From contig JAUCBJ010002419.1 of the NCBI GenBank assembly GCA_032718475.1, forward strand, positions 1-34,714: DNA of 34,714 nucleotides. The letters are read 5' to 3'. The translations under genes and the position numbers were made by a program. Of this stretch, positions 5,948 through 25,361 are shown piece after piece; positions within the stretch are counted from its first letter, which is position 1; each line of letters starts with the position of its first letter. Origin of the DNA: Nemertoderma westbladi (Eukaryota > Animalia > Xenacoelomorpha). The notes under the pieces were generated by a model. The model did no database searches and was not told the origin of the DNA. It saw only the letters and a list, made by a program, of their open reading frames with translations.

Positions 5948-7614
5948 TATCATGTACATGGTTAACAGTACAAATAGGTCGAACCGGTAGAGGTATAATA
6001 TAAACTGATTGAATTATAAACTGAGTTGATTTAATATGATACAGCGTACCGTTTATATAGAAAATTGTAAACAATATTGATGGTGGAGACAGTTGTTAAT
6101 TCAGTGTGGGTGGTTACGGGGTACATGTGATAATTAGTACCGTAATTGATATTGGTTTGTAAATGTGCTGCAATGCAGTTGTTTCTTGAAGGCTGTTATT
6201 AGAACTACCTTCCAATCTAATAATACCAAATATGGTAATAATTCCCTGGGGAGCATCCCCAAGCCTTCTCATTGGTCGTTACATTGAGTTATTCTAACTG
6301 TAGGGTACAGTGATATTCCTCTGGCAGTTCTGTTGGCGGGTTGTGATTGGCTTGCTGAATGAAATTGGATCTAGCTTCATTCAGTTCATGAGCTATATAA
6401 TTAAATATTCAGTTGCCATACTTCATTCATTATTGAATTTTGTTATCTCGCAAATATTTGGCAAATTATAGATAATTATTTGCGTATTTTTTCTCCGTAT
6501 TAACAATAAAACTTCAAAGGTAAGTTTAATGTTAGCCAAGGTGGTTTGCACTTGCAGATTCAGATAAACCTGCTTGGCTGCAGGACTGTTCTGATACTGC
6601 AGTACTTGGTACATTACTGCATTACAGCCTTATGTTTTTGAATGAATAGGTCAATGTTTGTGTCCCTGTCAGTAGAACTGAGGTAGAACTGGTAGGCTAC
6701 TACAGTAGCAAGCATAAGGTAATTACTGATTTACCGGAAACAACAGTAAGCAAAAACATACCGATGTACATACATACTGATATAGGCCATACTTACTATA
6801 TTCTAGTTTTCCCCTGTTGAAAAGTTTTATGTTCTGTGCCAAACGCTGTGTTATTTTAAGTGCATAAAATCGCGGACCGGGTAGATGCAAAGCTTGTGCT
6901 GAGCGGACCTTTTGGCACTGTGTCCGGCGTAGCACATTTCTGCACCAGCTCCTGCCGCAAGTTGAAATGCTCCGCCAAACAAAAGACGTACAGGCAGACC
7001 GGTAGGCCTTAAACTTTTCAATAGGCAGGTAGGGGTATAGTTTCTGACTGAGTTTCGACTGTGTCTTTCCTAATATTACTGTTCATAATAAAGAGGTTTC
7101 TACCATCATACCTGCTTCCAGCATGACTACCTCAACTGCGCTCAAGGAGTACAATCTCTTTCTATTTTTGCCTCATCTTCACATCTCAACTCTTCTCAAC
7201 GAACTCACTCTAATCAAAATCATCTCTACAGTAAATTGTTCTAACTCAAGCTCTAATCTGCAAACAGCAAACATTAACTATTAGGTCTAAAACAAGTTTC
7301 CATCACCTCAGCTGTTTCATCTCTCCACCTACTGACATTTGACTATGTCTACATAGACCATATCTTTAACTCGGTCCTCCAAATTTTATCTTTCTTGTTT
7401 TAATTTTCAACTCATTCCTTCAAAGTTACTCCTTCTTGTGCATATACGCATATACTGCATATACGTTTCTCCGAATTTACAAATTGCACCTCACAAAAAT
7501 CGTACCTACCTTGTTTGTCCCGTTGATGGTTGTTCGTTCAAAGAACCCACACAATACTTATTAAGCCACCTCAAGCACTACACCCTGATGCCAGGTGAGA
7601 GCAAGTGTTAAGCT

Positions 7615-8955
7615 ACTAAGTACACTAAGTTTTCACAGGAAGAAGTAGGTAGGTTGTACCAAAAGGCCAGACTTGATAAATTTCCCCAAGAATACTATTA
7701 ATAAAAAATTCCCCAAGAATACTAATAATACTGATGTGGAAGAAGTAGAAAACCTCAGGGTAATATTTCTATTTCCCTTGGAAATATAGTGGAGGTGGTA
7801 GGAGAAATACTTGCGGGTGGTGGGATCAGTGTTGTAAAGCTCTGTAGCTTTTTAAAAAGATATAAGGTTGATATTATTGATACGACGGACATAGATAACT
7901 CTGCAGGTTCTACATTAAAGCATGAAACATCAGCCTGCACCTCCACTGATCCTCCATCTGTGGTAAATGTGCATTCACCACTGAATGGTCCTGATGTAAC
8001 ACCCTCTTGTTCCTATGCCCCTCCAAGTTCACCAAATAAACTATTAATAAAAATAAATCATAAAAGAAAGTGTCATATATTTGACTCGGATTCTGATACT
8101 AGCTTTAGTGAAAGTCCTCAAAACTCACCAAAAAAAATTAAGAACAGAAAATCAAGAACATCTATCAGAACCATCTATATCATAGGGGGAAGGGTCAATA
8201 AAATCTAAAATTCAAAATGCTGGACTATATAAACGTTTCAACCTGGACAAAGCACCATCTGTTAATAGGTTTTACCTTTCAGAATGTAATAGGATGGAAG
8301 GGAAATCTGGGGGGGGGGGACAAAGTTATCCAAAAGCACAGGCCTATGACGTACTTAAAATCGCAAGCTATATAAATGTCCGAACCGGAAAAAAAACATG
8401 AGGAATACATACTATGTAGATGAGTATTTATACAAGCTTAAGGAATTAGGAATGACTGCAGAGAGTATTAATTGTCCATTAAAAAACTTAAAGAAGTACA
8501 TGAAGTTCAGAATAAACGAGTAAGGCCACTTTAGAATAAAACCTGACTCATTGTGGGACCAATTTAAAGATTGTTTAGATGCTCACCAAGCCTTCCAAAA
8601 GTCGAGTATTTCTAACCTCATACGTAAGAGAATTATACAACGTAGGATAGAGGACTATGAAAAGTTTGTAGATAGAGATCCACGAGAAACTATACGTATT
8701 ATAACAGATAGTAATGTTAAGGAGCAAGACATGAACAACCTTATTTTACAACTGAGAGTCTTGAATGGAGAAGAATTCCCTGAAGAAGATGAGGAGATCG
8801 ATGAAAGCATGAGTGACAGCAATGATGAAAACCAACATGAGGATGATGTAGACACTAGTGATTGGATTGGCGAGACATCAACAACTTCCACCTATGAACA
8901 GAGGTACTGGGCCTGGAGCCAGGGCCAAAATGAAGAAGTGAAAACAACAGACTAG
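7615..8955 (+). pseudogene. Decayed ORF with a segment resembling a tyrosine-recombinase core-binding domain (Crypton-like or viral), acidic tail
   Basis: Across frameshifts and stops: NAGLYKRFNLD...KAQAYDVLKIASYIN...VDEYLYKLKELGMTAESINCPLKNLKKYMKF...QAFQKSSISNLIRKRIIQRR. The YLxxLxxxGxTxxSIxxxLxxLxxY pattern is typical of YR core-binding helices. No catalytic domain is present. Confidence 0.4.
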
Positions 8956-9054
8956 CCATCTGCTCATTGCTTTTCCTCATTATATCTTCTTTTATCCCTA
9001 GTTTGTATACACATTTAATCACATTTAATCTATATATGTTTTATATTGTTTTAA

Positions 9055-9945
9055 TGACCGGAGAGCGAGGACGGATAGCGAGCCGTCACCCCGGAGAGAC
9101 GCACCACACGCCAGGAGAAGGGTACAGAATGTACCGGTACGAGGACAGGAGAGGGGATCGAAGGGAAACTTCCCGACGGGATATAGCTGCCGATCGAGAG
9201 TACGGTAGTTGTAGGGTTCTTGGATTACTCGAGAAGATTGAAGTTCGGTCCGGAGGGACACATGCAGACAGCAGGACATACTGTAGGCCTTACTGCACAT
9301 ACTATAGGCCATGCTGGGAGAGATAGTGTAGGCGATAGGGTAGCGCGAATGAAGGGATTAGACCCGGAAGTTGCGGCGTATATACCGGTAGGTAGGCAGG
9401 AAGTGAATAGGCCTATATCGGAACCAGCAGAACAGTATGACTATAATATGCAGGGACATAACATATATCCAGGGGAGGGGGGGTAGTTATTGCAGATAGG
9501 GGTATGGGCCCCAATATATTAACATCAACCCCCGTACCAAATATAACACCGGTGGGGGGGGGGGGGGGGGGGGGGGGGCAGGGTGACATTCCCCCATTAC
9601 AATATCAACAATACACTCAACCAGGAATAAGAACATCGAACCCCCTGGACGAGAACAGGTCGTACGATAGGGAAATATGGAGGGGGCCGTTACCCCCAAT
9701 GGTATATCCGACGCAAAGAAAGTTAGCAGGCCCGACGGGCGGAGCACACCCAACAGGAGAATCTGTACAGCATCCCTCGAACCCATTGGAAGCACAGGCA
9801 ATGGGAATGACGACACTTATCGATGCACTCAAGACCAGAATCGAGTTGCCACCAGTCGAGCCATTTAAATTCGATGGAAGCACACCGGAAGAATACCTGC
9901 AATTCCGACGCATGTACAGCACGTACAGCATGTACAGCATGTACA
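9055..9945 (+). pseudogene. gag: BEL/Pao gag N-terminal and central part (frameshifted)
   Basis: Low-complexity Pro/Gly/Gln region leading to MTTLIDALKTRIELPPVEPFKFDGSTPEEYLQFRRM (start of the DUF1759-type capsid region); breaks off at a 9-bp x4 repeat (9910-9946). Confidence 0.8.
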
Positions 9946-10274
9946 GATAACCGCGGTTCGGGGCTGCGGACGGGGCCGCGGACAGGGCCGTCAAGGGGGA
10001 TGCGTCGAGAGAGCGCCATACAGCGCAGCACGGCGCGGGACAGACAAACAGCGCGGCACCTGGAAACGTCGCGGGAGCGCCGAACGGTGAGGAAGCGCCG
10101 AATGGCGAAGAAACGGGAGTGGCCGAAATCGCGGACACAGATGTGGCCGATAAGGATAAGATGGACTGAAGTCACAAATGCGGCCAATACTGTAGTACTG
10201 AAATCCTATAAAGTATTGAATTTTCGTTATCGGTATGAAATTGTCCCCAGTTTCTATGTAGCTTCTGGTTGAAT

Positions 10275-11007
10275 TGTCTCTATTTAAACGATAAACTAAA
10301 GACGAGGCCAAGTAGGATGGCGGTAACAACCATCTCCAGCAAAGATGAGGTCCTGGAGATGAGGACAGGGTGCGAGATAGTAGCGATAGCACCGGGATGT
10401 GACTATGGGGCGACCATCGACCCCACCCAGGTAATAGAATCGATCAACATTAATGCCAGGCGACCAACTAACATCGAAGTCGAACAATACAGATTCCTGG
10501 ACAAAATCGATTTCTCAATACCGGAGGTGGACGTCAGGAAGGTATCCATAATAGTGGGAATGGATTGCCCGACGGCCCACGAGAGGATACAGACGGTCTT
10601 CGGCGAAGACAAACAGCTTGATCCGATGGCAGTTCTAACGCCATTCGGATGGACAAGTGGCCCAATCAAAACCAAAATTCCATTTAGGATGTCGGAGACA
10701 TCGGGGTGCATGTTCGCGGGAACTATGATGGAGATGGAAGACGAAGGAGCTGAGGAGCAGCTTAAGAGACTGTTGAAGCAGGACTTTGAGGGACTAAAGG
10801 AGACCGGGGTCGGAACCTCGGTAGAGGATAACCAAGCAATACAGAGTGTGAAGGAGTCAATAGATGCGACGAGGGGCGGTACACCATAGGCATGGTGTGG
10901 AAACAGCCAAAACTACCGCTACCCGAGAACAAGGGGATGGTACTCACGAGGCTTCGCAAGCTGAAGCAAACGCTGAAACGGAGCCCCAAAAAGGATGAGT
11001 ACATCCA
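10275..11007 (+). pseudogene. pol: BEL/Pao protease C-half and start of RT (copy 1)
   Basis: VSIIVGMDCPTAHE...DPMAVLTPFGWT..GP, SVEDNQA, GMVWKQPKLPLPEN; ends abruptly at 11007. Confidence 0.85.
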
Positions 11008-11865
11008 CTAGTGAACTGTTCAGCTTTGTCAAATCTCTCTCAACCAACTCCCCGCGTCTCCCAGATTCAGAGGATGATTCTATGTTAGCCAATGAATTTG
11101 CCGATTTCTTTGAGGAAAAGGTAAATAAATTCCGTGACTCAGCACCTGCAACACCCACCGTACCAGATCATCCGTCTAGTGATTTTAACTCGAAGTGGGA
11201 AAAATTCACTATCCCGACGGCACAGGAGACCAAACAGATTATTAGTAACATGAAACCTACAACGTGTTCCTCCGATCCTATCCCAACAGAAATCCTAAAA
11301 AAGGTCCCAGAGCAATGGATTCCGATTGTTCATAAAATAACATCAACTTCTCTTGAACGTGGTGAATTCCCATCCAATGGTAAACAAGCGATTCTCCGTC
11401 CACTACTAAAGAAAGCTAAACTCGACCATCAAAACAAGAAAAACTACAGACCAGTTTCAAACTTATCTTTCCTTTCTAAGATCATTGAAAAACACGCTGC
11501 TCTCCAACTGATTGACTACCTAGATAAGAATAATATTATTCCAAAGTTTGTCTCGGGTTATCGTAAATATCACTCTGTTGAAACACTATTGTGCAGATTA
11601 CAAAGTGACTTACTCGAAACTATTGATAGTGGTAAATTCGCAGCTCTCATTCTCTTAGACCAATCGGCTGCTTTCGACCTTGTCGATTACAACATATTAC
11701 TAGACACACTTCGTAATATCGGCATTGACGGGACTGTCTATCAGTGGTTTAAGTCATACCTATCAGATAGATCATTCGTAGTTTCAATAAATGGGAAACT
11801 TTCTCGTGTTGTAAACCTTTTGAGTGGAGTTCCCCAGGGCTCAGTCCTTGGAGCAATCCTGTACT
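11008..11865 (+). mobile_element. L2/CR1-clade LINE ORF2 fragment (RT domains 0-4)
   Basis: TTCSSDPIPTEILK, RPLLKKAKLD..KNYRPVSNLSFLSKIIEK, SGYRKYHSVET, LLDQSAAFDLVD, WFKSYLSDR, GVPQGSVLG; truncated before YADD. Confidence 0.92.
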
Positions 11866-12307
11866 GTGCTAATGATAGACTGTAATACATACCAACTTGG
11901 CTACAGAGGCTTAGTAACGTGGTATAGTAAAGAATTACTAAGAAGTAAAATAATTAATATATAATTTTATTTATTTATTTATAATTGTAAATTTCATAGA
12001 GTTTTATTTGAGTTTTCCCAAACTGTAAGAGCGGTTGCTATGCTCTTGTGTATAACACAATAAGATGATCTATGTGATTGTAATATCTTCAACTATAGAT
12101 GGATTTCACCCAGTTTACACGGTTACGTCCCATAAAGAAGAATAATTTGTTTATTTGATTGGCAATTAGTCGCACAGGTGGAAGTCGCACACCCTGCTAC
12201 TTGGTGGAAAACTCATCGATTTGACATATCTCATTTGAACTGATTCATAATCATGATTCAACCTCCCTTTCCTGAGAACAACCTCCCTTGCATCTGAAAA
12301 TTCCTGT

Positions 12308-12420
12308 GCTAGCAAATGTCATGGGTGATAGGGAGTTGTGGCGGTGCAATTTTGTTGACAAGCCGGCACAGCATTCTTAAAAATGCAGCTGCAATGCAGC
12401 ATGCCGATCCTAGTAGTAGT
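12308..12420 (+). mobile_element. RTE-like LINE 3' end with (TAG)n tail
   Basis: Reverse complement of 23944-24060 and 20410-20520; ends gcatgccgatcc-tagtagtagt. Confidence 0.92.
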
Positions 12421-14992
12421 AGAGGATAAACAAGCGGTACAAAGTGTGAAGGAGTCGATGAGATGCGACGAGGGGCGGTACACCATAGGCATGGTGTGGA
12501 AACAACCAAAACTACCGCTACCAGAGAACAAGGGGATGGTACTCACGAGGCTTCGTAAACTGAAGGAAACGCTGAAACGGAGACCCGAGAAGGATGAGTA
12601 CATCCATAAGACGATAAGGAAGTACGTCGAGAAAGGATGGGCCGTGAAGCTGCCGGTCGACGAACTGAACACGGACAGGACCTACTACCTGCCACTTCAC
12701 GTGGCTTTAGATCCAAAGAAAGGTAAATTGCGGATGGTAATTGACGCATCAGCTAAAACCAACGGCAAGTGCCTAAACGACTATCTGCTGGAGGGCCCCA
12801 ATATCTACAACTCGGGGATTGAGGTATTACAGAGATTTAGAAATGGGAGACACGCCTTCACCTGCGACATCGAAGGCATGTTCAACCAAGTTCGTGTGAC
12901 AGGGGAGGATAGCGACAGCCAGCGCTTCCTATGGTACAACGGCGACGAGGAACCGTCGACAATACCGATGTACAAGATGGTGGTGCAGAACATGGGGGCC
13001 AAGTCGTCCTCATTTACAACGACTATGGCTGTAAGAGATACGGTAGAAGGGAAAGAGAGGAAGTACAGCGCTAAAGCGGTCGATATGATTCGACGCGGCT
13101 TCAATGTAGACGACGGGATGGAGTCTGGAAACACGGTTAAAGAATTACTGGACACAGGGCGCGAGGTTCGCGACATCCTGAAAGGATCCGGATTTAACCT
13201 GACCAAGTTTCAATCCAGCTCAGATGAGTTTATGGAAGCCATAGAGGACAGGCGGCCAGAGTCGACCATGGACAACCCCACAGCAGCCAAGGGACAGGAC
13301 CTGGCGGACAAAAGAGTGGAGTCTCAGCAGAAGGCACTGGGGATCGTGTGGAACCGGGAGACAGATGAGTTAAAGTACCAACTGAGCCAGGAGGGCCCGG
13401 ACACCCACACAAAGAGGGGCTATGTATCGTAAAATAGCAAGGATATACGATCCCTTAGGCCTAGCATCCCCACTGTTAGTCACGGGGAAACAGATACTTA
13501 AGAAAGTATATAAGTTAAAGGACGAGTGGGATACAGAGGTCCCGGAAGAAATCAGCAAGCAGTGGAGTAAGTGGACGGGGAATTTAGAACAGATGGGGAC
13601 GTACAGCATGCCACGCGTGTATTTCCCGGATGGGGACATGACGGATCTGGACCTATACATGTTCTCCGATGCATCATTAGAAGCATACAGAGCGGCACTC
13701 TACCTAGTACAGCGAAAGGGGGCTCATGAGCCCATACTCGCATACAGTAAAGCAAAGTCGACGCCGCCAGATTCAGCATCAGTCCCGAAACTCGAGTTGA
13801 CAGCTGAGAGATTAGGAGTAAGGGCCACAGCCTACTTGATGGACACTATTCCCAACATAGTGGAAATACACTACTGGACGGACTCCATGGTAGTGCTTGG
13901 ATGGCTGCACAATGAGAAGACGAGATACCCTATATTCGTCGCCAATAGGGTGAACGAAATAAGGGCGACCACAGGGTTGGAAAGGTGGCACTACTGCCCA
14001 ATGGACGAGAACCCAGCAGACTTGTTATTGAGGGGCGTGGCACGCCACAATTTCTTAAAGAAGGAAGTGTTGTGGCAGCACGGGCCACACTTCCTGAAAG
14101 ATAGGTCACCGATCAAGATCAAGGTGATGCGACACACGGAGAAATGCTACAGCATCATCTTCGTATGTAACAACACAAGGGCGGTAGGAATAGAACTCGC
14201 CCAAGATGCAACTGCATCGGCATTCATCAATGCCGTAGAGAGATTCAGAGACCACAAAGGTGGAATGATCGCAGTGATCTATTCCGACAATAGAACCAAC
14301 TTTGTGGGGGCAGAGAACGAGTTAGCGGAGGCCTTGGAGATCCTGGAAGGAGAAGAAGTCAGGGCAGCCATGAGGAGATGACAGGTGAAGTGGGAAAGGA
14401 GGACGCCATACGCGCCACATACTTTAGGATGCGTCGAGAGACTTGTGGGTAGTTCCAAGCGTCTGATGACGAAGTTGATGAACACCCACATGGTAACGGA
14501 GGACATACTAAGGACTGTGCTAACTAAGTGCGAGGGCATCATCAATAGCAGACCGCTATATCCAGAAAATGACGACCCAGAATCACTAGACGTGCTAACA
14601 CCAAGCCACTTTCTGATGGAAAGGCCGGCGACCATCGACATGCGGGGTGTAGACCCAGATGACATACACTCCCGTCAGAGTTGGAAAGTCTCCAAGGCGA
14701 TAAGCGCAGAGTACTGGAGGAGGTGGGTCGAGGAATACCTACCCACATTACACAGGAGGAGCAAGTGGAGAAACACCACTAGAGAGTTAAAGAAAGGTGA
14801 TTTAGTGATCGTCACTGACGACACAATCATCAACAATCAGTGGAGGCTAGCAAGAATAGTAGACAGTTACCCGATGAGGACGGAAGAGTCCGATCGGTGG
14901 AAGAGCGGATAGGGGGTAAGATAGGAGCAAAGGACAGGAAGACCTGCAGGAGGGCTGTAGGGAAGTGCTGCTTACTAGAAGAGACACCATAG
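12419..14992 (+). pseudogene. pol: BEL/Pao pol (RT, RNase H, integrase core and C-terminal domain), copy 2; frameshifts, stops and an internal deletion
   Basis: RT DIEGMFNQV and NVDD (mutated YVDD); RNase H FSDAS/PKLEL/WTDS/NPAD; deletion near 14105 removes the HHCC zinc finger and first catalytic D; YSDNRTNF, ERLV, INSRPL; stop at 14990-14992. Confidence 0.95.
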
Positions 14993-15089
14993 AGTTAAGT
15001 GTTGGACTGAGTGGGGTGGGATTGAGGGCAAGACGCCCTTCCCACACAAATATATAAAAAAAATAATAAATAAAAATAAAATAATAAGA

Positions 15090-15860
15090 AAGAAAGTTAG
15101 AAAGTTAGAAAGTTAGAAAGAGAAAGTAATAGTAGATAGTACATAGTAGTAAGTAAGTAGGCAGATAGAAGTTAGTAAGAGTTAGTAGAGTAAGAGGGTG
15201 CGCGCAGTACCGCTAGTAGAAGTTAGTAAGAGTTAGTAGAGTAAGAGGGTACACAGTACCGCTAGTAGAAGTTAGTAAGAGTTAGTAGAGTAAGAGGGTA
15301 CGTAGTACCGTTAGTGGAGTTAGTTAGAGAGTAAGAGGGTACATAGTACTGTTAGCGGAGTTAGTTAGAGAGTACGAGGGTACGTAGTACCGTTAGTGGA
15401 GTTAGTTAGAGAGTAAGAGGGTACGTAGTACCATTAGCGGAGTTAGTTAGAGTGTAAGAGGGTATGTAGCACCGTTAGTGGAGTTAGTTATAGAGTAAGA
15501 GGGTATGTAGTACCGTTAGTGGAGTTAGTTAGAGAGTAAGAGGGTACGCAGTACCGTTAGTGGAGTTAGTTAGAGAGTAAGAGGGTACGTAGTAACATTA
15601 GTGGAGTTAGTTAGAGTGTAAGAGGGTATGTAGTACCGTTAGTGGAGTCAGCTAGAGTTGTAAGTGGGAACGTAGTACCATTAGTAGAGTAAGAGTTAGT
15701 AAGAGTTAGAGTGTTAGTAAGAGTTAGTAAGAGTTAGAGAGTTAGTAAGAGTTGGAGAGTTAGTAGAGTTAGAGAGTTAGTAAGAGTTAGTCAGAGTTAG
15801 AGAGTTAGTAAGAGTTAGAGAGTTAGTAGAGTTAGAGAGTTAGTAGGGTTAGTAGTAAGA
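15090..15860. repeat. Purine-rich satellite in the pol-ORF3 spacer (41-bp unit x ~9-10 flanked by (AGAGTTAGTA)n and (AGAAAGTT)n)
   Basis: gtacgtagtaccgttagtggagttagttagagagtaagagg at 15298, 15339, 15380, 15421 ... 15626. Confidence 0.95.
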
Positions 15861-16359
15861 AGTGAGAGGGGGGCACGTGGGTACAGCAGGACAGACCGTG
15901 TAGGCCGCACGAGACATACTACTGTACTGCACAGCCCGTAGAGTAGGTCAGAATGTTAGATACAGGGCCAGGAGGTTACCTGGTGCAGACTAGCACATTA
16001 AGGAATAGCTAGTCTACCCTGTATGCAAAGTATAGGGGTTATTTAGACAAAATAATCCATTATAAATATTAATAGCACAGTAGCAGAATTAAAAATTAGT
16101 ATTAAAAATAAAATTCAACAAATTATAGCAACAGTAGACAGAAAATTCTAGAACAATAATAAAAGTAACTGACAGATTTAGGGAATTTAGGGAAATTTAG
16201 CATTTTAGGGTGTACATAGGCAAAATAGTGTAAAAAACCTAGTGTTCTGAGAGAGATAGGCCAATATCGGACCGCACAGACCATCCTAAATACATCACTC
16301 ATCTATATTGAGCCTTGGTAAGGCACCACCTTGTAGGTGAGCGATCGCGAGCGTTCGAA

Positions 16360-18748
16360 ATGGCGGAGAGACTGGTCAGAATGAGAAAGGCGGAATAGGT
16401 GGAAAGGAGATACTAGTAGATTTCACCCAGAGGCATCCGGAGGAGAAGACGAGGGGATACTACGAGCGGTTAGAGAAAGGTCACAAGGCGCGAGCGCTGC
16501 AGGACCATTTCAGGGAGGTGCACGAGAGGAGGCTGGTCAGGACCTACGGGACACCATAGCTAGACAACGCGATCCTCGAGCATTTCCACTACGTAGTGAA
16601 GGGAGATGAGGCGAAGTTTGGGATACCGAAGTATCCGAGGGAACCACCGAGAAAGGACTGGAAGAGGTTCATAGAGTCCGTCAGCAGGGGAGGATACATG
16701 GTCCTAGACGACGAAGGTACCGTGGAAGACGACGAGGGTTCGAGAAGAGGGTCAGCGGGGTCGGCCAGAACCATACTTCTACATTTGGCTGCGCAAAATG
16801 GGGACATATTCCTGTTCGATCTGGGAACGTATGGGAAGAAGAGCGGGCCGAAGTTGAACCGGTTGCCAAGGGCGGTGCAGAACCTAGTAAGGGAGAAGTC
16901 GACAATAAAGGTGGGATCGGCGATCCGCGACGATGCGGAGAGGATCGTTGGACCGGAGACCCCCAACCTTCTGGACATGCAAACGGTCTACATGGCTATG
17001 ACAGCGCCAGCCGGGTTGGAACTAGTAGAGAACACAGGACATTGCAGAGCAGTGGCGATGGGCCAGCTGATGGGGCTCGTCTGCCACAAGCTGATGGACT
17101 GGGGTAAATTCAGGGAGGAGTATGGAGCGGATTTGGCGAACTCACTGAAGTGGGGAGTGAGGCCAGGGAAACAGGAGGTGTATCATTATCAATTCCGGAG
17201 AGGAGTGATAAAGATATATCAGAAGCGATATATCCTGCAGGGGGATTCGTTTCTCCTGTCGGGATCACCCCTGAACTGCAGAAGAGCCTTCAAAGTGGCC
17301 TTAGAGGGTCTGGCAGACCACCCGGGGCTGAAGGGCGAGTCGGTATACTATAACTGCCGATATCTAGTAGACAGGGGGGTGGATACACCATATCAGAGGT
17401 GGGAGAAGCTGGAGGCGGATAGACTAGAGGAGAAGCGATTGGAAGAATTCGCCAGACAAGAAAGGAGGGAGGCAGACGAAAGAGAGGCAGAAGCTAGAGG
17501 AGGGGGCTACGGGTTCGAGGCCCAGGCCTTGGACGAGTTACAGTGGGGATCAGGGAGCTCGGGCGAGTCTCTGGGGCGGGAGTTGGGATGGACGGAAGGA
17601 TCGCCGAAACAGGCGACAGGGGATTGCAGGCGATGCCCATGCCAGCAGGCGCCGAGGGAGATTTCGCGAAGAAAAGACCAAGGGAACTGGAAGGATGGAA
17701 AGTTACGGGCGAGAGCCAAGGCGGGAAGGGACACAGTGGGTCTGCCGGGATACCGGGTTTGGATCCACTCCCAGCGGGGGATGAGGATGACGACGAGTTA
17801 GGGGAGATGCCGCCCATCGAGAGGATCGGCCACTCAGACACGGACTGGGTTGGCGGGAGAGTGGTGACGGCCAGCGGAGCGAGGGCCATCTGGGATAAAC
17901 CCGGTAAGCGGGCCTGGGTGCATGAGGAGCCAGCGATGGATTTCGCGGGGAGCACCATCAGGTTGGGCAAGCAACCGGGAACGGCACCACAGGTAGTGTT
18001 CGGAGAGACGATGCCGAGGCAAGACGAGGACATAGACATGGACAGAGACGTTAACGTCCAGAAGTTTGCTTACCAACGGCTCCATAGACCGATGAGATCG
18101 CTTGGGGCAAAGGACGACTTGGGGCGGGATGCGTTGATACATGGCTGCAATTACTGCGGGAGGCTTACTCACCAGGAAAAGAGCTGCTTGATTCCAGAAG
18201 GGGACGTGTTGCCTCTACTGCCGCGGATGGGGGCGTGTCCACGATGCACAACCGGTGCTCTAAGTGTAACTTTCGGGGACACTATGGACGCCAGTGCAAC
18301 TGGATGCACGACGAGGAGAAGTTTAAGATCTTCGAGGAGTGGGCCGACGTCGGCGTCATGATGCAGCATCGACGGCGGCATCGTATGGCATGGTGGAGTG
18401 ATCAATACGCAGAGGTATTTAGATAGATGGGCGCCAGAGAACCGGGGAGAGTTCAGAGATTTCCTGGCGGAGCATGTGCCGCGGGCCATGAAGGTGATCT
18501 TGTGGGACGCTACTAGGGGAAAGCAGCAGGGGCATTCGGAGGGGCCACCTGCGAAGCGATACCGGGAGCTAATAACACCAGCGCCCAAGGAATCGACCAC
18601 GGGAATCAGTAAGGAGGTAATGGCAAGGATGAGGAGCCTTAAGGAGGACAAGAGCAAGGAAGCGGTGACATCCAGGAAGCGACTGAGAGAGGACAACAAC
18701 AGAGGGAAGGAACTGAGATGGTTCCCAAAGACGGGAGGAGCGAACTAG
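16360..18748 (+). pseudogene. Accessory ORF3 of the BEL element: DEDDy (WRN/RNase D/MUT-7-like) 3'-5' exonuclease + coiled coil + three CCHC zinc knuckles
   Basis: ExoI MVLDDEG (16698-16718); ILLHLAAQNGDIFLFDL; LPRAVQNLVREKSTIKVGSAIRDDAERI (ExoII); LLDMQ; YQKRYILQGD (degenerate ExoIII); knuckles CNYCGRLTHQEKSC, CLYCRGWG (damaged) and CSKCNFRGHYGRQC; several stops and frameshifts. Confidence 0.78.
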
Positions 18749-19459
18749 GACTTGGAGGGGGAGATGTGGGGATGCCTGGAAGGCACCACATGCGAAGTAA
18801 TACGAACTCCTAAGTGCAAATTTAATAAAAGTGCAATTAGTATGTACGTGTGTAATAATCAATAGAGTATAATTCAAATCAATATAATCAAAGTAAGTAC
18901 TATAGTCATGTAACCTTTTCCAACTAGCTAGTGGGACTGGGGACCAATCGACTATGACAGGAGGACGGCACTACACAGTTCACACTTCTTAAGTGCGACG
19001 GCACGGAAGGGGAGGGTGAGGCTCATCAAGAGTGAATGGGGCAACATAAGTAAGGGTTGAGTACAAGAGCGCAGGGGAGATAATGAGATGTAGTGTTGAC
19101 ACGTGTGGAAAGAATACGGGTGTAATTCAAATGTGGGGAGCGAGGAGTAAGAGGCAGAGTGAGGGACAAAGAGGTTCGAAAGTAGAGTGGAGTTAGAGTG
19201 GAGTTAGAGTGGAGCTAGAGAAGTTAGAGTCAGTCTAGAGTAGAGTGGAGATATAAAAAATTGTGTGAGAAGAGTCCACAATTGTCTCGAACCGAGACGC
19301 CAGATGTCTTGGTGCAACATAGGTTGCGGTTGCACCAAGAAGGGGTAGTAATATCATACCCAGAGGGAGCGGCCTGGAAAGCCGACTCCAAGAAAAGAAC
19401 TCCACCCCACACCCGATAGTAGATCGGGTTCCAGCGGAATTGAAGCGCACTTATGGGTG

Positions 19460-19497
19460 ATGCTATCTTCTCACCGGGAAGATAGCATGGGGGGGAG
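19460..19497 (+). other. Stem-loop plus polypurine tract
   Basis: atgctatcttc-tcaccgg-gaagatagcat (11-bp stem) then a G-run ending GAG, immediately before TGT. Confidence 0.85.
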
Positions 19498-20121
19498 TGT
19501 AAGCAGATTCAGTTCCGCTGCATTACCCTCATAAAATGGGAAGTGGCACCTTTTTCAGCAATATGTTGGAGATACGAGATTGGCAATAACCAATCTCGTA
19601 TCACAACCAACACCGGGGACAACACAACCCCAAAGCCACACAAAGGGAGGTTAGAGGTCAAATCACCTCGGGAGGGGAAACAACCAGCAGGGGCCAACAG
19701 GGGGGGAAGCACTCCCAGAGAGGGGAGGGCGAGGGGCGTGAAGTAGATTATCAGCCAATAGGGGCGAGGGAGAGCATCCACTAGGTGAAAGGCCACAGCA
19801 GTGTAGGAGTGATCACATATATTATCAATGCATATTAGTTACCGGTTCAGTTACCCAGTTATCAGCTTTAGTGCAGACCGGTGATGTTTCACACCATCAC
19901 CATCACCAACACACACACCTACCGGTATCCATCTCATAGTATCAATGCTTATCTGCAATCCTTACTGTGTTACTAATACTGTTATCTAAATATCAAGAGA
20001 CAACATCAACTCTTATTATTTTCGCTACAACGGCCTCGGCCTAGACATCAACACAATCCCTAAGGTAAACACGGTGACGCGTAGTCTACAAATCCGGTCG
20101 GGATCCCTTGATCCCATCACA
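19498..20121 (+). repeat. 3' LTR of the BEL/Pao element (~624 bp)
   Basis: Starts TGTAAG directly after the PPT; ends ATCACA where an unrelated RTE RT fragment begins. No second LTR in the window to confirm the end. Confidence 0.7.
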
Positions 20122-20270
20122 GATATCCGGCTAACAGTCACAGACACCGACTTTATGGATGACATAGCCCTGCTCTCTTATACGCTAGCAGATGCACAGC
20201 TTCTGCTTAATAAAGTGGAGAGGGTTGCTAAAGATGTTCCATTGCATATAAATGCCACCAAAAGGAATAT
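20122..20270 (+). mobile_element. Old RTE-like RT fragment (probable insertion target of the BEL element)
   Basis: TDTDFMDDIALLSYTLADAQLLLNKVERVAKDVPLHINATK, the RT domain 5-6 pattern (DFADDIALL...GLxINxxKT). Confidence 0.8.
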
Positions 20271-20409
20271 GTGTGTGTTATACTACATTATTTTATAGAG
20301 ATACTAATAATAATAAGATAAATAATCAACAATCCAGTAATGGGAAAACATGTGCGTAGTGTTGGAGGTTGACGTACTGGGTTCAAGCCGATTCAGAGTG
20401 ACCCTGTAC

Positions 20410-20905
20410 TACTACTACTAGGATCGGCATGCTGCATTGGAGCTGCATTTTTAAGAATGCTGTTCCAGCTTGTCGACAAAATTGCGCCGCCACAACTCCC
20501 TATCACCCATGACATTTGCTAGATCATCCACATCTTAAAGGCCAGTGTCCTTTAAGATGCTTCTCAAGAAAGTCTTGGGCTGTCCACCATGCTTATTCAC
20601 TCCATGAGGCCGCCAAACTAGATTATGCACTGGCTGGACCTCACGGTCCCGGTGGAAGCAATGTCATGCAAAGCGGAGGCGGATTTGTTCTAGTGTCAAG
20701 CTTGGGGTAACCAATGGGACACCTCCAATGTTATATAGTGTCTGGTTGGAGATATGTTTATTGTACTTGACACAGTGAGCCCGGCGTTGCATTCTTGTGT
20801 ATGTGCCATCCAGAGATTTGGTGTCCTCAGCATTTAGAGCCCAGCATGGACTACCATAAAGGAGTCCTGGAACTACTGCTGCTCTAAATAATCGAAGCCG
20901 TGACC
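20410..20905 (-). mobile_element. 5'-truncated RTE-like LINE with 12-bp TSD
   Basis: TSD gtgaccctgtac at 20398-20409 and 20906-20917; (TAG)n tail; encodes LLYGSPCW...LDGTYTRMQRR. Confidence 0.93.
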
Positions 20906-23943: not shown

Positions 23944-25361
23944 ACTACTACTACTACTAGGATCGGCATGCTGCATTGCAGCTGCATTTTTAAGAATGCT
24001 GTGCCGGCTTATCGACAAAATTGCACCGCCACAACTCCCTATCACCCATGACATTTGCTAGATCATCCGCATCTTCAAGGCCAGTGTCCTTTAAGATGCG
24101 TCTCAAGAAAGTCATGGACTGTCCACCATGCTTATTCACTCCATGAGGCTGCCAAAGTACAAGATTATGCACTGGCTGGTCCTCACGGCGAAAGCAATGT
24201 CCTGCAAAGCGGAGGCGATTTTGTTCTAGTGTCAAGCTTGGGCGAACCAATGAGACACCTCCAATGTTATATAGTGTCTGGTTGGAGATGTGTGCATTGT
24301 ACTTGACACAATGAACCCGGCGTAGCATTCTTGTGACTGTGCCATCCAGAGATTTGGTGTCCTCAGCAGTTAGAGCCCAGCATGGACTCCCATAGAGGAG
24401 TACTGGAACTACCTGGACCTTAAGTTTCCGATTAATTCTCGGTGACTTCCAAATCCTGGAAAGCCTATTCAAGGCTGCCCATGCCTTCCCCTTACGTATT
24501 CGAAGGTCCTCACCTGACTTCCGGATCCATGATACCAGGTAACAGAAGTCATCCACATGCTCAAGTATACCATCTTTTGAGCTTTTGCTCATCCGATCAG
24601 ATAATTGTTAACTGTCAAAATTTTGGTCTTTCTGGAGTTAATAAAAAGACCAACACTAGAAGCAGCACGTTCTAATGAGCTGAGGAGCCGCTGGGCTCCC
24701 TCTAGTGATTCTGAGAGTACTCCTAAGTCATCAACAAAGTCTACATTAAGGTACTTGGCAGGATTTCCTCGACTTCTGGAGCCAGTAGGTGGAGTTATCA
24801 TCACCCCATCATCATTATGATGATCGAAGGACATGCGTAGAACATAGTCAACAACAATTATGAACAAGAATGGTGCAAGTGTGTCTCCCTGGAGGACGCC
24901 CCATAACACTTCAAATGGTTCTGTGTCACCGTCAACAGTAGACACAAATGTTGTCGAACCATCGTATACTGATCTGATTGCTGCAATAATTTCATCAGGA
25001 ATCCCATATAATGAAAGCATGCTGAACATACGTGAGCGAGAGACTGAATCAAAGGCCTTGAAGAATTCAACAAAGATAACAGCCAGATGCCTGTCTTTCT
25101 TTTTTGATAACTCTTCAATTATCCTTCTAAGTGCCAAAATGGGCTCCATGGTGCCACGACCTTTACGGAACCCATTATGATTTCCACGGAGCAGTCTCTC
25201 AATGGGATCCCTGATGCGATTTAATAGAATTCTATTGTATAGCTTTGCAGCAATCGAGATCAATGAGATTCCCCGAAAAGAACCATAGAGTGTTAGGTTG
25301 CCCTTCTTAGGAACTGGCACCAACTTATTTGTTTTCATTTCTTGTGGGACTCTTGTTAATT
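23944..25361 (-). mobile_element. 5'-truncated RTE-like LINE (RT and C-terminus) with 12-bp TSD
   Basis: PVPKKGNL..FRGISLISIAAKLYNRILLNR, GVLQGDTLAPFLF, DFVDDL, FCYL, RLRFAGHCFR; TSD tcctttatgaat at 23932-23943 and 25362-25373; (TAG)n tail. Confidence 0.95.

Follow-up and report, generated by a model that had tools for sequence, protein, structure and literature searches.

What does a BEL/Pao retrotransposon carry in the position of an envelope (env) gene? The question is raised by a 34,714-nt stretch of the Nemertoderma westbladi genome (GenBank assembly GCA_032718475.1, contig JAUCBJ010002419.1, positions 1 to 34,714, forward strand; hereafter the window), in which a third open reading frame (ORF3) lies between pol and the polypurine tract (PPT) of a decayed long terminal repeat (LTR) retrotransposon. 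An earlier reading by a model of the letters and open reading frames (ORFs) only (the original prediction) took ORF3 to encode a DEDDy exonuclease followed by three CCHC zinc knuckles. Here we show that ORF3 belongs to a repeated family, and we consider it quite probable that it is a real accessory gene with a DEDD fold.

A third open reading frame in the env position

The host element is a BEL/Pao element (Belpaoviridae), with the reverse transcriptase (RT)-RNase H-integrase order and the BEL-specific Pfam domains present. Pfam domains follow one another in the order Peptidase_A17 (E 7e-37), rve (E 0.0017) and DUF5641 (E 9.6e-19), and the RT region matches 5 BEL polyproteins at 30-35% identity, all 5 of which carry PF05380 and PF18701; the BEL/Pao assignment of the original prediction is thus upheld. 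The element resembles described Belpaoviridae in its protease-RT-RNase H-integrase order, in Peptidase_A17 and DUF5641, and in having a third gene between integrase and PPT (PMC8742986). The integrase stop was found where it had been placed, at 14990-14992. The pol gene is interrupted by frameshifts and stops and has lost ~200-340 codons internally, from between RNase H and the integrase core; this BEL/Pao copy is dead. The purine fraction of the + strand is 0.55-0.73 per 250 nt from 9001 to 19750 (the element occupying ~9050-19750), and drops to 0.46-0.51 in an inserted long interspersed nuclear element (LINE) piece near 11000-12250. Despite the deletion in pol, the element spans at least 10.4 kb (about 9 kb minus the later insertion), close to the upper limit of the 4.2-10 kb stated for Belpaoviridae (PMC8742986).

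To delineate ORF3, we trained a codon model on gag-pol segments of the same element; it yielded one coding path through four frame segments (frame 0, 16400-17550; frame 2, 17600-18190; frame 1, 18200-18340; frame 2, 18350-18748) and a stop at 18746-18748. The path chosen by the model is the path that bears all of the motifs described below. GC content at third codon positions (GC3) is 0.64 in the exonuclease region; pol has 0.60-0.66 and the LINE insert 0.47. Chance expectation was assessed by 2000 second-order Markov simulations of 16360-18748, among which a 413-codon open frame never arose, one CCHC motif arose in a single simulation and two or more arose in none. Because a single coding path is found under the element's codon model, and because the CCHC motifs and ORF length lie beyond chance, we conclude that ORF3 is a real third ORF of the element in the env position; the original prediction of a decayed ~2.4-kb sense ORF after the integrase holds as a single broken ORF.

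The exact pattern CX2CX4HX4C was found at 18146 and 18256 and nowhere else in the six frames of the whole window, while another knuckle is broken near 18210 in the translation, in agreement with the two intact knuckles and one damaged knuckle first described. Weak PDB matches of the knuckles were to nucleocapsid, Lin28, Air2 and the knuckles of Trypanosoma brucei RNase D (TbRND). For the segment previously called a charged coiled coil, the charge was confirmed (22 of 36 residues are D, E, K or R), and a coiled coil is likely. Since no signal or membrane helix is present, with no 19-residue window above a hydropathy of 0.97 in any + frame of 16360-18750, ORF3 is not env, as had been argued. In the profile of the International Committee on Taxonomy of Viruses, the third genes of Belpaoviridae are env-like only (PMC8742986), and the env types given for BEL/Pao in the available text of PMC13524379 are F-type in roo and gB-type in mosquito elements. 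These are envelope-like glycoproteins, whereas the present ORF3 product appears soluble, without signal or membrane segment.

To assess whether other copies exist, contigs from sequencing runs were aligned to 16200-19600 at 80% likeness; 31-42% of sampled words were present in three runs bearing the same organism label (two studies). In runs X1, X2, X3 and X5 (X1 and X2 being one sample), 7154, 4988, 4655 and 69 contigs fitted, covering 30, 30, 30 and 28 of 30 bins, respectively, in identity classes running from under 90% to 99% and above. The window itself may derive from one of these runs, and contig depth was not taken as copy number. The alignment covered the ORF3-to-PPT stretch, of which each contig spans at most about 450 nt. 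In the four runs, 96-100% of contig depth lacks the stop at 16557-16559. Because the contigs number in the thousands and are diverged, and because the early stop is missing from most copies, the ORF3-to-PPT stretch is a repeated family-level feature and not a one-off. Two of the frame switches in this copy coincide with, or lie close to, small indels in other copies. In the selected subset formed by the best-supported 40 of 650 variable places, 24 lie in 16442-17206, and 14 of these occupy the third position of their codon (p = 0.01), which no more than hints at purifying selection. With so many diverged copies in a highly repeated family, selection on catalytic residues should be directly readable.

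Contigs of other copies were also seen to skip parts of ORF3 (16665-18398, 16600-16915, 16774-17109 and 17353-17823), which points to internally deleted derivatives within the family.

Predicted fold and active site

All motif strings named in the original prediction are present at their ORF3 positions: VLDDEG (16701), LLHLAA (16776), FLFDL (16809), LPRAV (16863), KVGSAIRDD (16908) and QKRYILQGD (17220). The exonuclease assignment that was drawn from them stands in part, with our own profiles scoring above all shuffles and a lead from the ESM Atlas, but with no match in the family libraries. Profiles were built from bacterial PF01612 domains, leaving out 3 of 40 loci without the ExoI pattern. 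The ORF3 domain was matched by a WRN-like profile (18 sequences; E 8e-4) and a pooled profile (37 sequences; E 1.2e-4), in each case with 0 of 500 shuffles as high, and by a 31-sequence profile that overlaps the other sets (E 1.7e-4; 0 of 1000 shuffles as high). The profile match runs from strands 2-3 through the next helix to ExoII. Two queries of the ESM Atlas led to a cluster of WRN-like exonucleases, with scores of 0.86 and 0.88 (short of the 0.9 mark, and used as a lead only); 38% of its members carry PF01612. A DnaQ-like DEDD fold of RNase D/WRN type is thus moderately supported as the predicted fold of the N-terminal domain.

In the active-site alignment, where family members share 12-21% identity with the ORF3 domain, the ExoI residues D 16707 and E 16713 and the ExoII residue D 16932 are present and align with invariant family columns. 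The DEDDy signature consists of four acids and a Tyr in motif III (10.1101/2025.08.03.668247, available text). For ExoIII, the alignment places the family Trp at 17151, the Tyr at 17187 and an Arg in the Asp column; the QKRYILQGD string gives Tyr 17229 and Asp 17244 (+5), one residue beyond canonical spacing. The string called a degenerate ExoIII in the original prediction does exist, but its role is ambiguous, the alignment preferring Tyr 17187 with Arg at Asp. Copies differ in length, in frame, at 17181 in the ExoIII region. A DEDD fold with three of the four acidic residues is a moderately supported prediction. Because the fourth acid is non-canonical and the site incomplete in this copy, ORF3 was not classed as an active DEDDy member, and a pseudo-nuclease is a real possibility; judging by these residues, functional copies would have a roughly even chance of nuclease activity.

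Known precedents and possible functions

Juno and Vesta of bdelloid rotifers are retrovirus-like LTR retrotransposons of the Ty3/Gypsy type. The rotifer Athena/Terminon retroelements are Penelope-like, whereas the host of ORF3 here is BEL/Pao. A DEDDy ORF3 has been published for all of these rotifer elements (Rodriguez et al. 2017, PMC5408684) and is restated in the available text of PMC6431247 and PMC5718144. As far as the available text of PMC5408684 goes, the present ORF3 is like the rotifer ORFs in being a non-env third ORF after pol with a predicted RNase D-like fold and no membrane helix. The rotifer ORFs are described there as lacking coiled-coil domains and as having intact catalytic residues (DEED), whereas ExoIII is non-canonical in the present copy; CCHC has 0 occurrences in the main text. 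This comparison is by published description of the rotifer ORFs. Of the Ty3/Gypsy DEDDy precedents cited in the original prediction, the rotifer elements are confirmed by PMC5408684; Cer1 has 0 occurrences in its available text.

Judged on models, TbRND (PDB 7C42/7C45) would be the best structural analogue of ORF3. It is a DEDD exonuclease with four CCHC fingers at its C terminus, and upstream of the active site RNA is bound by ZF1-2 (PMC7797062, available text, as for all statements on TbRND here). In both proteins a DEDD fold, predicted in the case of ORF3, is followed by C-terminal CCHC motifs, which in TbRND hold RNA, and the exonuclease plus CCHC architecture is not new as such. TbRND is a cellular enzyme with four fingers, a 28-residue linker and the full tetrad, whereas ORF3 has three knuckles ~270 codons downstream, past a charged helix, and a non-canonical ExoIII, with no sequence evidence of orthology. 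In Exd1, Egalitarian and Exuperantia, the DEDD fold binds RNA with catalysis lost or dispensable; these are host proteins and not element-borne, and the available text of 10.1101/2025.08.03.668247 describes no CCHC knuckles in them.

No exonuclease ORF of a BEL/Pao element was found in the literature searched, in line with the earlier statement that no exonuclease-knuckle fusion is known in this group; Repbase, Dfam, GyDB, most subscription papers and supplements lay outside the search and may hold one. None appears in the available text of PMC3118150, PMC13524379, PMC3597677, PMC6431247 or PMC5718144. What would be new, going by sequence, is the host lineage and the domain combination, DEDDy ORF3 cargo being known from other elements and the exonuclease plus CCHC architecture from TbRND. 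Novelty is limited because the copy is decayed, the sequence an orphan and the active site uncertain. If the assignment is true, BEL/Pao would join Ty3/Gypsy and Penelope-like elements as a third group of retroelements that has captured a nuclease, and recruitment of the exonuclease fold by LTR elements would be a recurrent event. For the rotifer ORFs, activity is not demonstrated according to the available text of PMC5408684.

As a tentative working model, to which we give slightly less than an even chance, we propose that a multi-copy BEL/Pao family encodes in the env position a protein whose knuckles and RNase D/WRN-type fold engage an RNA 3' end. By analogy with TbRND, the knuckles would clamp single-stranded RNA and feed the exonuclease pocket, and the exonuclease fold would engage the 3' end, most likely of the element's own RNA. 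Within the particle, ORF3 might in this way trim such ends or protect them, the element's RNA or a reverse-transcription intermediate being the most economical substrate. Just upstream of the PPT the RNA of the element is also predicted to fold strongly (z -4.97), and nothing ties this segment to ORF3.

Several results weigh against this model. The protein and DNA collections searched yielded no true homologue of the exonuclease region: none came from phmmer against 1.84 billion representatives, from word-index searches at 227-723 aa or 724-2065 aa, or from searches of metagenome, viral and prokaryote genome contigs. The region has no match at E<=10 in Pfam (including PF01612, the comparison suggested in the original prediction), NCBIfam or PHROG. 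Of the 4 profiles compared with 500 shuffles, 2 were uninformative, a short RNase D profile being non-discriminating (57 of 500 shuffles as high) and a Pol I profile giving no score. The global hhalign probability is 0.04-0.10 and not significant, and 6 of 14 conserved columns are matched, a chance level reached by 103 of 300 shuffles. The unseeded single-sequence AlphaFold model has a predicted local distance difference test (pLDDT) score of 35 and no Foldseek match. A seeded model has pLDDT 69 (81-89 over residues 71-110) and matches RNase D, Nibbler, WRN, EXD2 and Rrp6, with TbRND sharing the best place with RNase D and Nibbler (for TbRND, Z 16.5 and a root-mean-square deviation of 2.9 over 194 residues); because it was seeded with exonuclease sequences it is circular, and it was taken as a sign of compatibility, not as independent support. 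The canonical ExoIII Tyr-x3-Asp is absent in both registers of this copy, the knuckles lie much farther from the exonuclease than in TbRND, and the linkage of pol and ORF3 was seen in one copy, that in the window.

Candidates from these searches were rejected on inspection. The single phmmer match, P0006, is a bacterial repeat protein in which four short repeats matched by chance; two phage matches at E 4-6 are not true homologues, two PDB sequence matches are unrelated, and seven weak matches in 201 bacterial genomes were dismissed, several being in wrong frames. Queries with pol recovered no related loci in viral or metagenome contigs. The six invariant columns of the alignment were likewise dropped as fold evidence, given the shuffles that equal them. 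With respect to the 1.84 billion representatives the ORF3 protein is a sequence orphan, and such cargo is probably missed by standard annotation.

The main rival is a non-cutting RNA adaptor, in which the fold, charged helix and knuckles of a pseudo-nuclease would package, localise or shield element RNA; as a full account we consider it somewhat unlikely. Neither ExoIII register has the fourth acid where it should be, the candidate acid positions are untouched by the 40 best-supported inter-copy differences, and DEDD enzymes are described as having turned into RNA binders repeatedly (10.1101/2025.08.03.668247, available text). The Asp and Glu of ExoI and the Asp of ExoII are nonetheless retained despite the low identity to family members, and, on the same side, the copy is decayed and the inter-copy differences cover 40 of 650 variable places.

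An active counter-silencing nuclease that trims or destroys host PIWI-interacting RNAs (piRNAs) or small interfering RNAs (siRNAs) aimed at the element is, in our judgement, unlikely. The idea draws on related folds, Nibbler trimming piRNA ends (PMC13269885, available text) and TbRND working on guide RNAs, on the suppression of innate immunity by arenavirus ExoN (10.1101/2021.02.01.429129, available text), and on the high repetition of the ORF3 family. It is opposed by the non-canonical ExoIII and by the rotifer case, where the available text of PMC5408684 gives no clear link of DEDDy ORF3 to copy number and small-RNA coverage on all ORF types. Its more specific form, a BEL/Pao-encoded small-RNA trimmer in which an RNase D-type exonuclease with a non-canonical site is fused to three CCHC knuckles, convergent with TbRND, and which would degrade or mis-trim piRNAs or siRNAs and so lead to high copy number, we regard as decidedly unlikely; if true, an animal transposon would be encoding its own nuclease to suppress small-RNA silencing.

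It is very unlikely that the ORF3-to-PPT stretch is a separate repeated unit, from another element or a non-autonomous derivative, joined to BEL pol only here. This would fit the short reach of the contigs and the position of pol outside the contig alignment, the missing partner LTR, and the presence of the pre-PPT segment in records that run into other sequence (19343, 19519 and 19534). The strand, purine skew and codon usage of ORF3 are however those of pol, no terminal repeat or target duplication was found between pol and ORF3, and the integrase-to-PPT position is the usual ORF3 slot (PMC8742986). We give scarcely any credence to an N-terminal domain that is not a DEDD fold, with motifs resembling it by chance in an orphan alpha/beta domain: the missing library matches and homologues, non-significant hhalign and chance-level column count allow it, but three profile tests score above all shuffles, the ESM Atlas lead names the same family twice, and the unseeded model, at low confidence, already has the order helix-strand-strand-strand-helix.

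The 3' end and other features of the window

Table 1. Features of the BEL/Pao element in the window, in order along the + strand.
Feature	Position	Strand	Basis
Decayed gag/protease-linker remnant (presumed), broken ORFs 9462-9950, 9811-10272, 10239-10889	9462..10889	+	ORF list, translation
Later insertions in pol: LINE-type RT fragment and short dispersed repeat (12309-12422)	11008..12418	+	RVT_1 E 4.6e-15
BEL/Pao pol (RT, RNase H, integrase, DUF5641)	12422..14992	+	Pfam and 5 BEL polyproteins
Purine-rich tandem-repeat spacer, pol to ORF3; 41-nt unit x10, 18-28-nt units	15052..15854	+	Tandem Repeats Finder
ORF3, ~790 codons, with stops at 16396 and 16557 and several frameshifts	16360..18748	+	Codon model, GC3
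Likely DEDD/RNase D-WRN-type 3'-5' exonuclease fold	16650..17330	+	Own profiles, ESM Atlas lead, alignment
Charged helical segment	17400..17507	+	22/36 residues D/E/K/R (61%)
CCHC zinc knuckle 1, intact	18146..18187	+	Pattern match; zf-CCHC_4 E 0.0014, under curated cut-off
CCHC knuckle 2, damaged; first two Cys visible, frame broken	18210..18250	+	Translation
CCHC zinc knuckle 3, intact	18256..18297	+	Pattern match; zf-CCHC_3 E 0.048, zf-CCHC E 0.47, under cut-off
Structured 3' untranslated segment, several hairpins, ends in PPT 19489-19497	19270..19497	+	RNA fold
Candidate 3' LTR, begins TGT	19498..19990	+	Position directly after PPT

A purine tract of 9 nt (19489-19497) is followed by TGT at 19498 and fits the BEL/Pao PPT of about 10 nt; the PPT/LTR boundary of the original prediction is retained for its tract and shifted for the LTR, with TGT beginning one base before the boundary given. 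The fold of the preceding segment at 19270-19497 was matched in stability by 0 of 200 shuffles, and no Rfam match was found for it at E<=0.1. In each of the four runs, summed contig depth over 19270-19505 far exceeds that of ORF3 and of the candidate LTR (in X1, 262,263 vs 3,000-59,000), and records depart from the window sequence on both sides of the pre-PPT segment. The 19270-19505 segment may be a cis element common to several element families or non-autonomous derivatives.

The LTR that had been proposed is kept as a candidate by its TGT start after the PPT, but no second copy of 19401-20100 was found within the window; the 5' end of the element is decayed or lost. A near-perfect hairpin was observed at 19571-19602, within the candidate LTR. 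Directly after it lies a short ORF (19990-20298) with what we take to be a non-LTR RT-like motif, and this ORF may cut the candidate LTR short.

Between pol and ORF3, the tandem array at 15052-15854 could be an internal regulatory region or a promoter for ORF3. Short units like those of this spacer reappear at 19183-19246. The LINE RT fragment breaks up the 5' part of pol, and together with the short repeat it is flanked by a 187-nt pol duplication (10821-11007/12419-12606; 92.6% alike by self-BLAST), which is unusually long for a target-site duplication. The gag/protease-linker remnant at the start of the element is presumably such, given its position and known BEL motifs; it has no Pfam match, and no Cys-His motif was found across 9000-10900.

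Upstream of the element, 7500-8955 holds AT-rich broken ORFs with a Cys/His-rich stretch near 7510-7590 and acidic tracts; the two ORFs scanned there have no Pfam match. A dispersed repeat occurs in three copies (12309-12422, 20407-20876 and 23946-24412), of which the 470-nt copies are 91% alike and the 114-nt piece (12309-12422) is inverted within BEL pol. Downstream, a long inverted repeat pair (21155-21622/26089-26568; about 75% over 485 nt, ~4.5 kb apart) possibly represents the ends of a DNA transposon.

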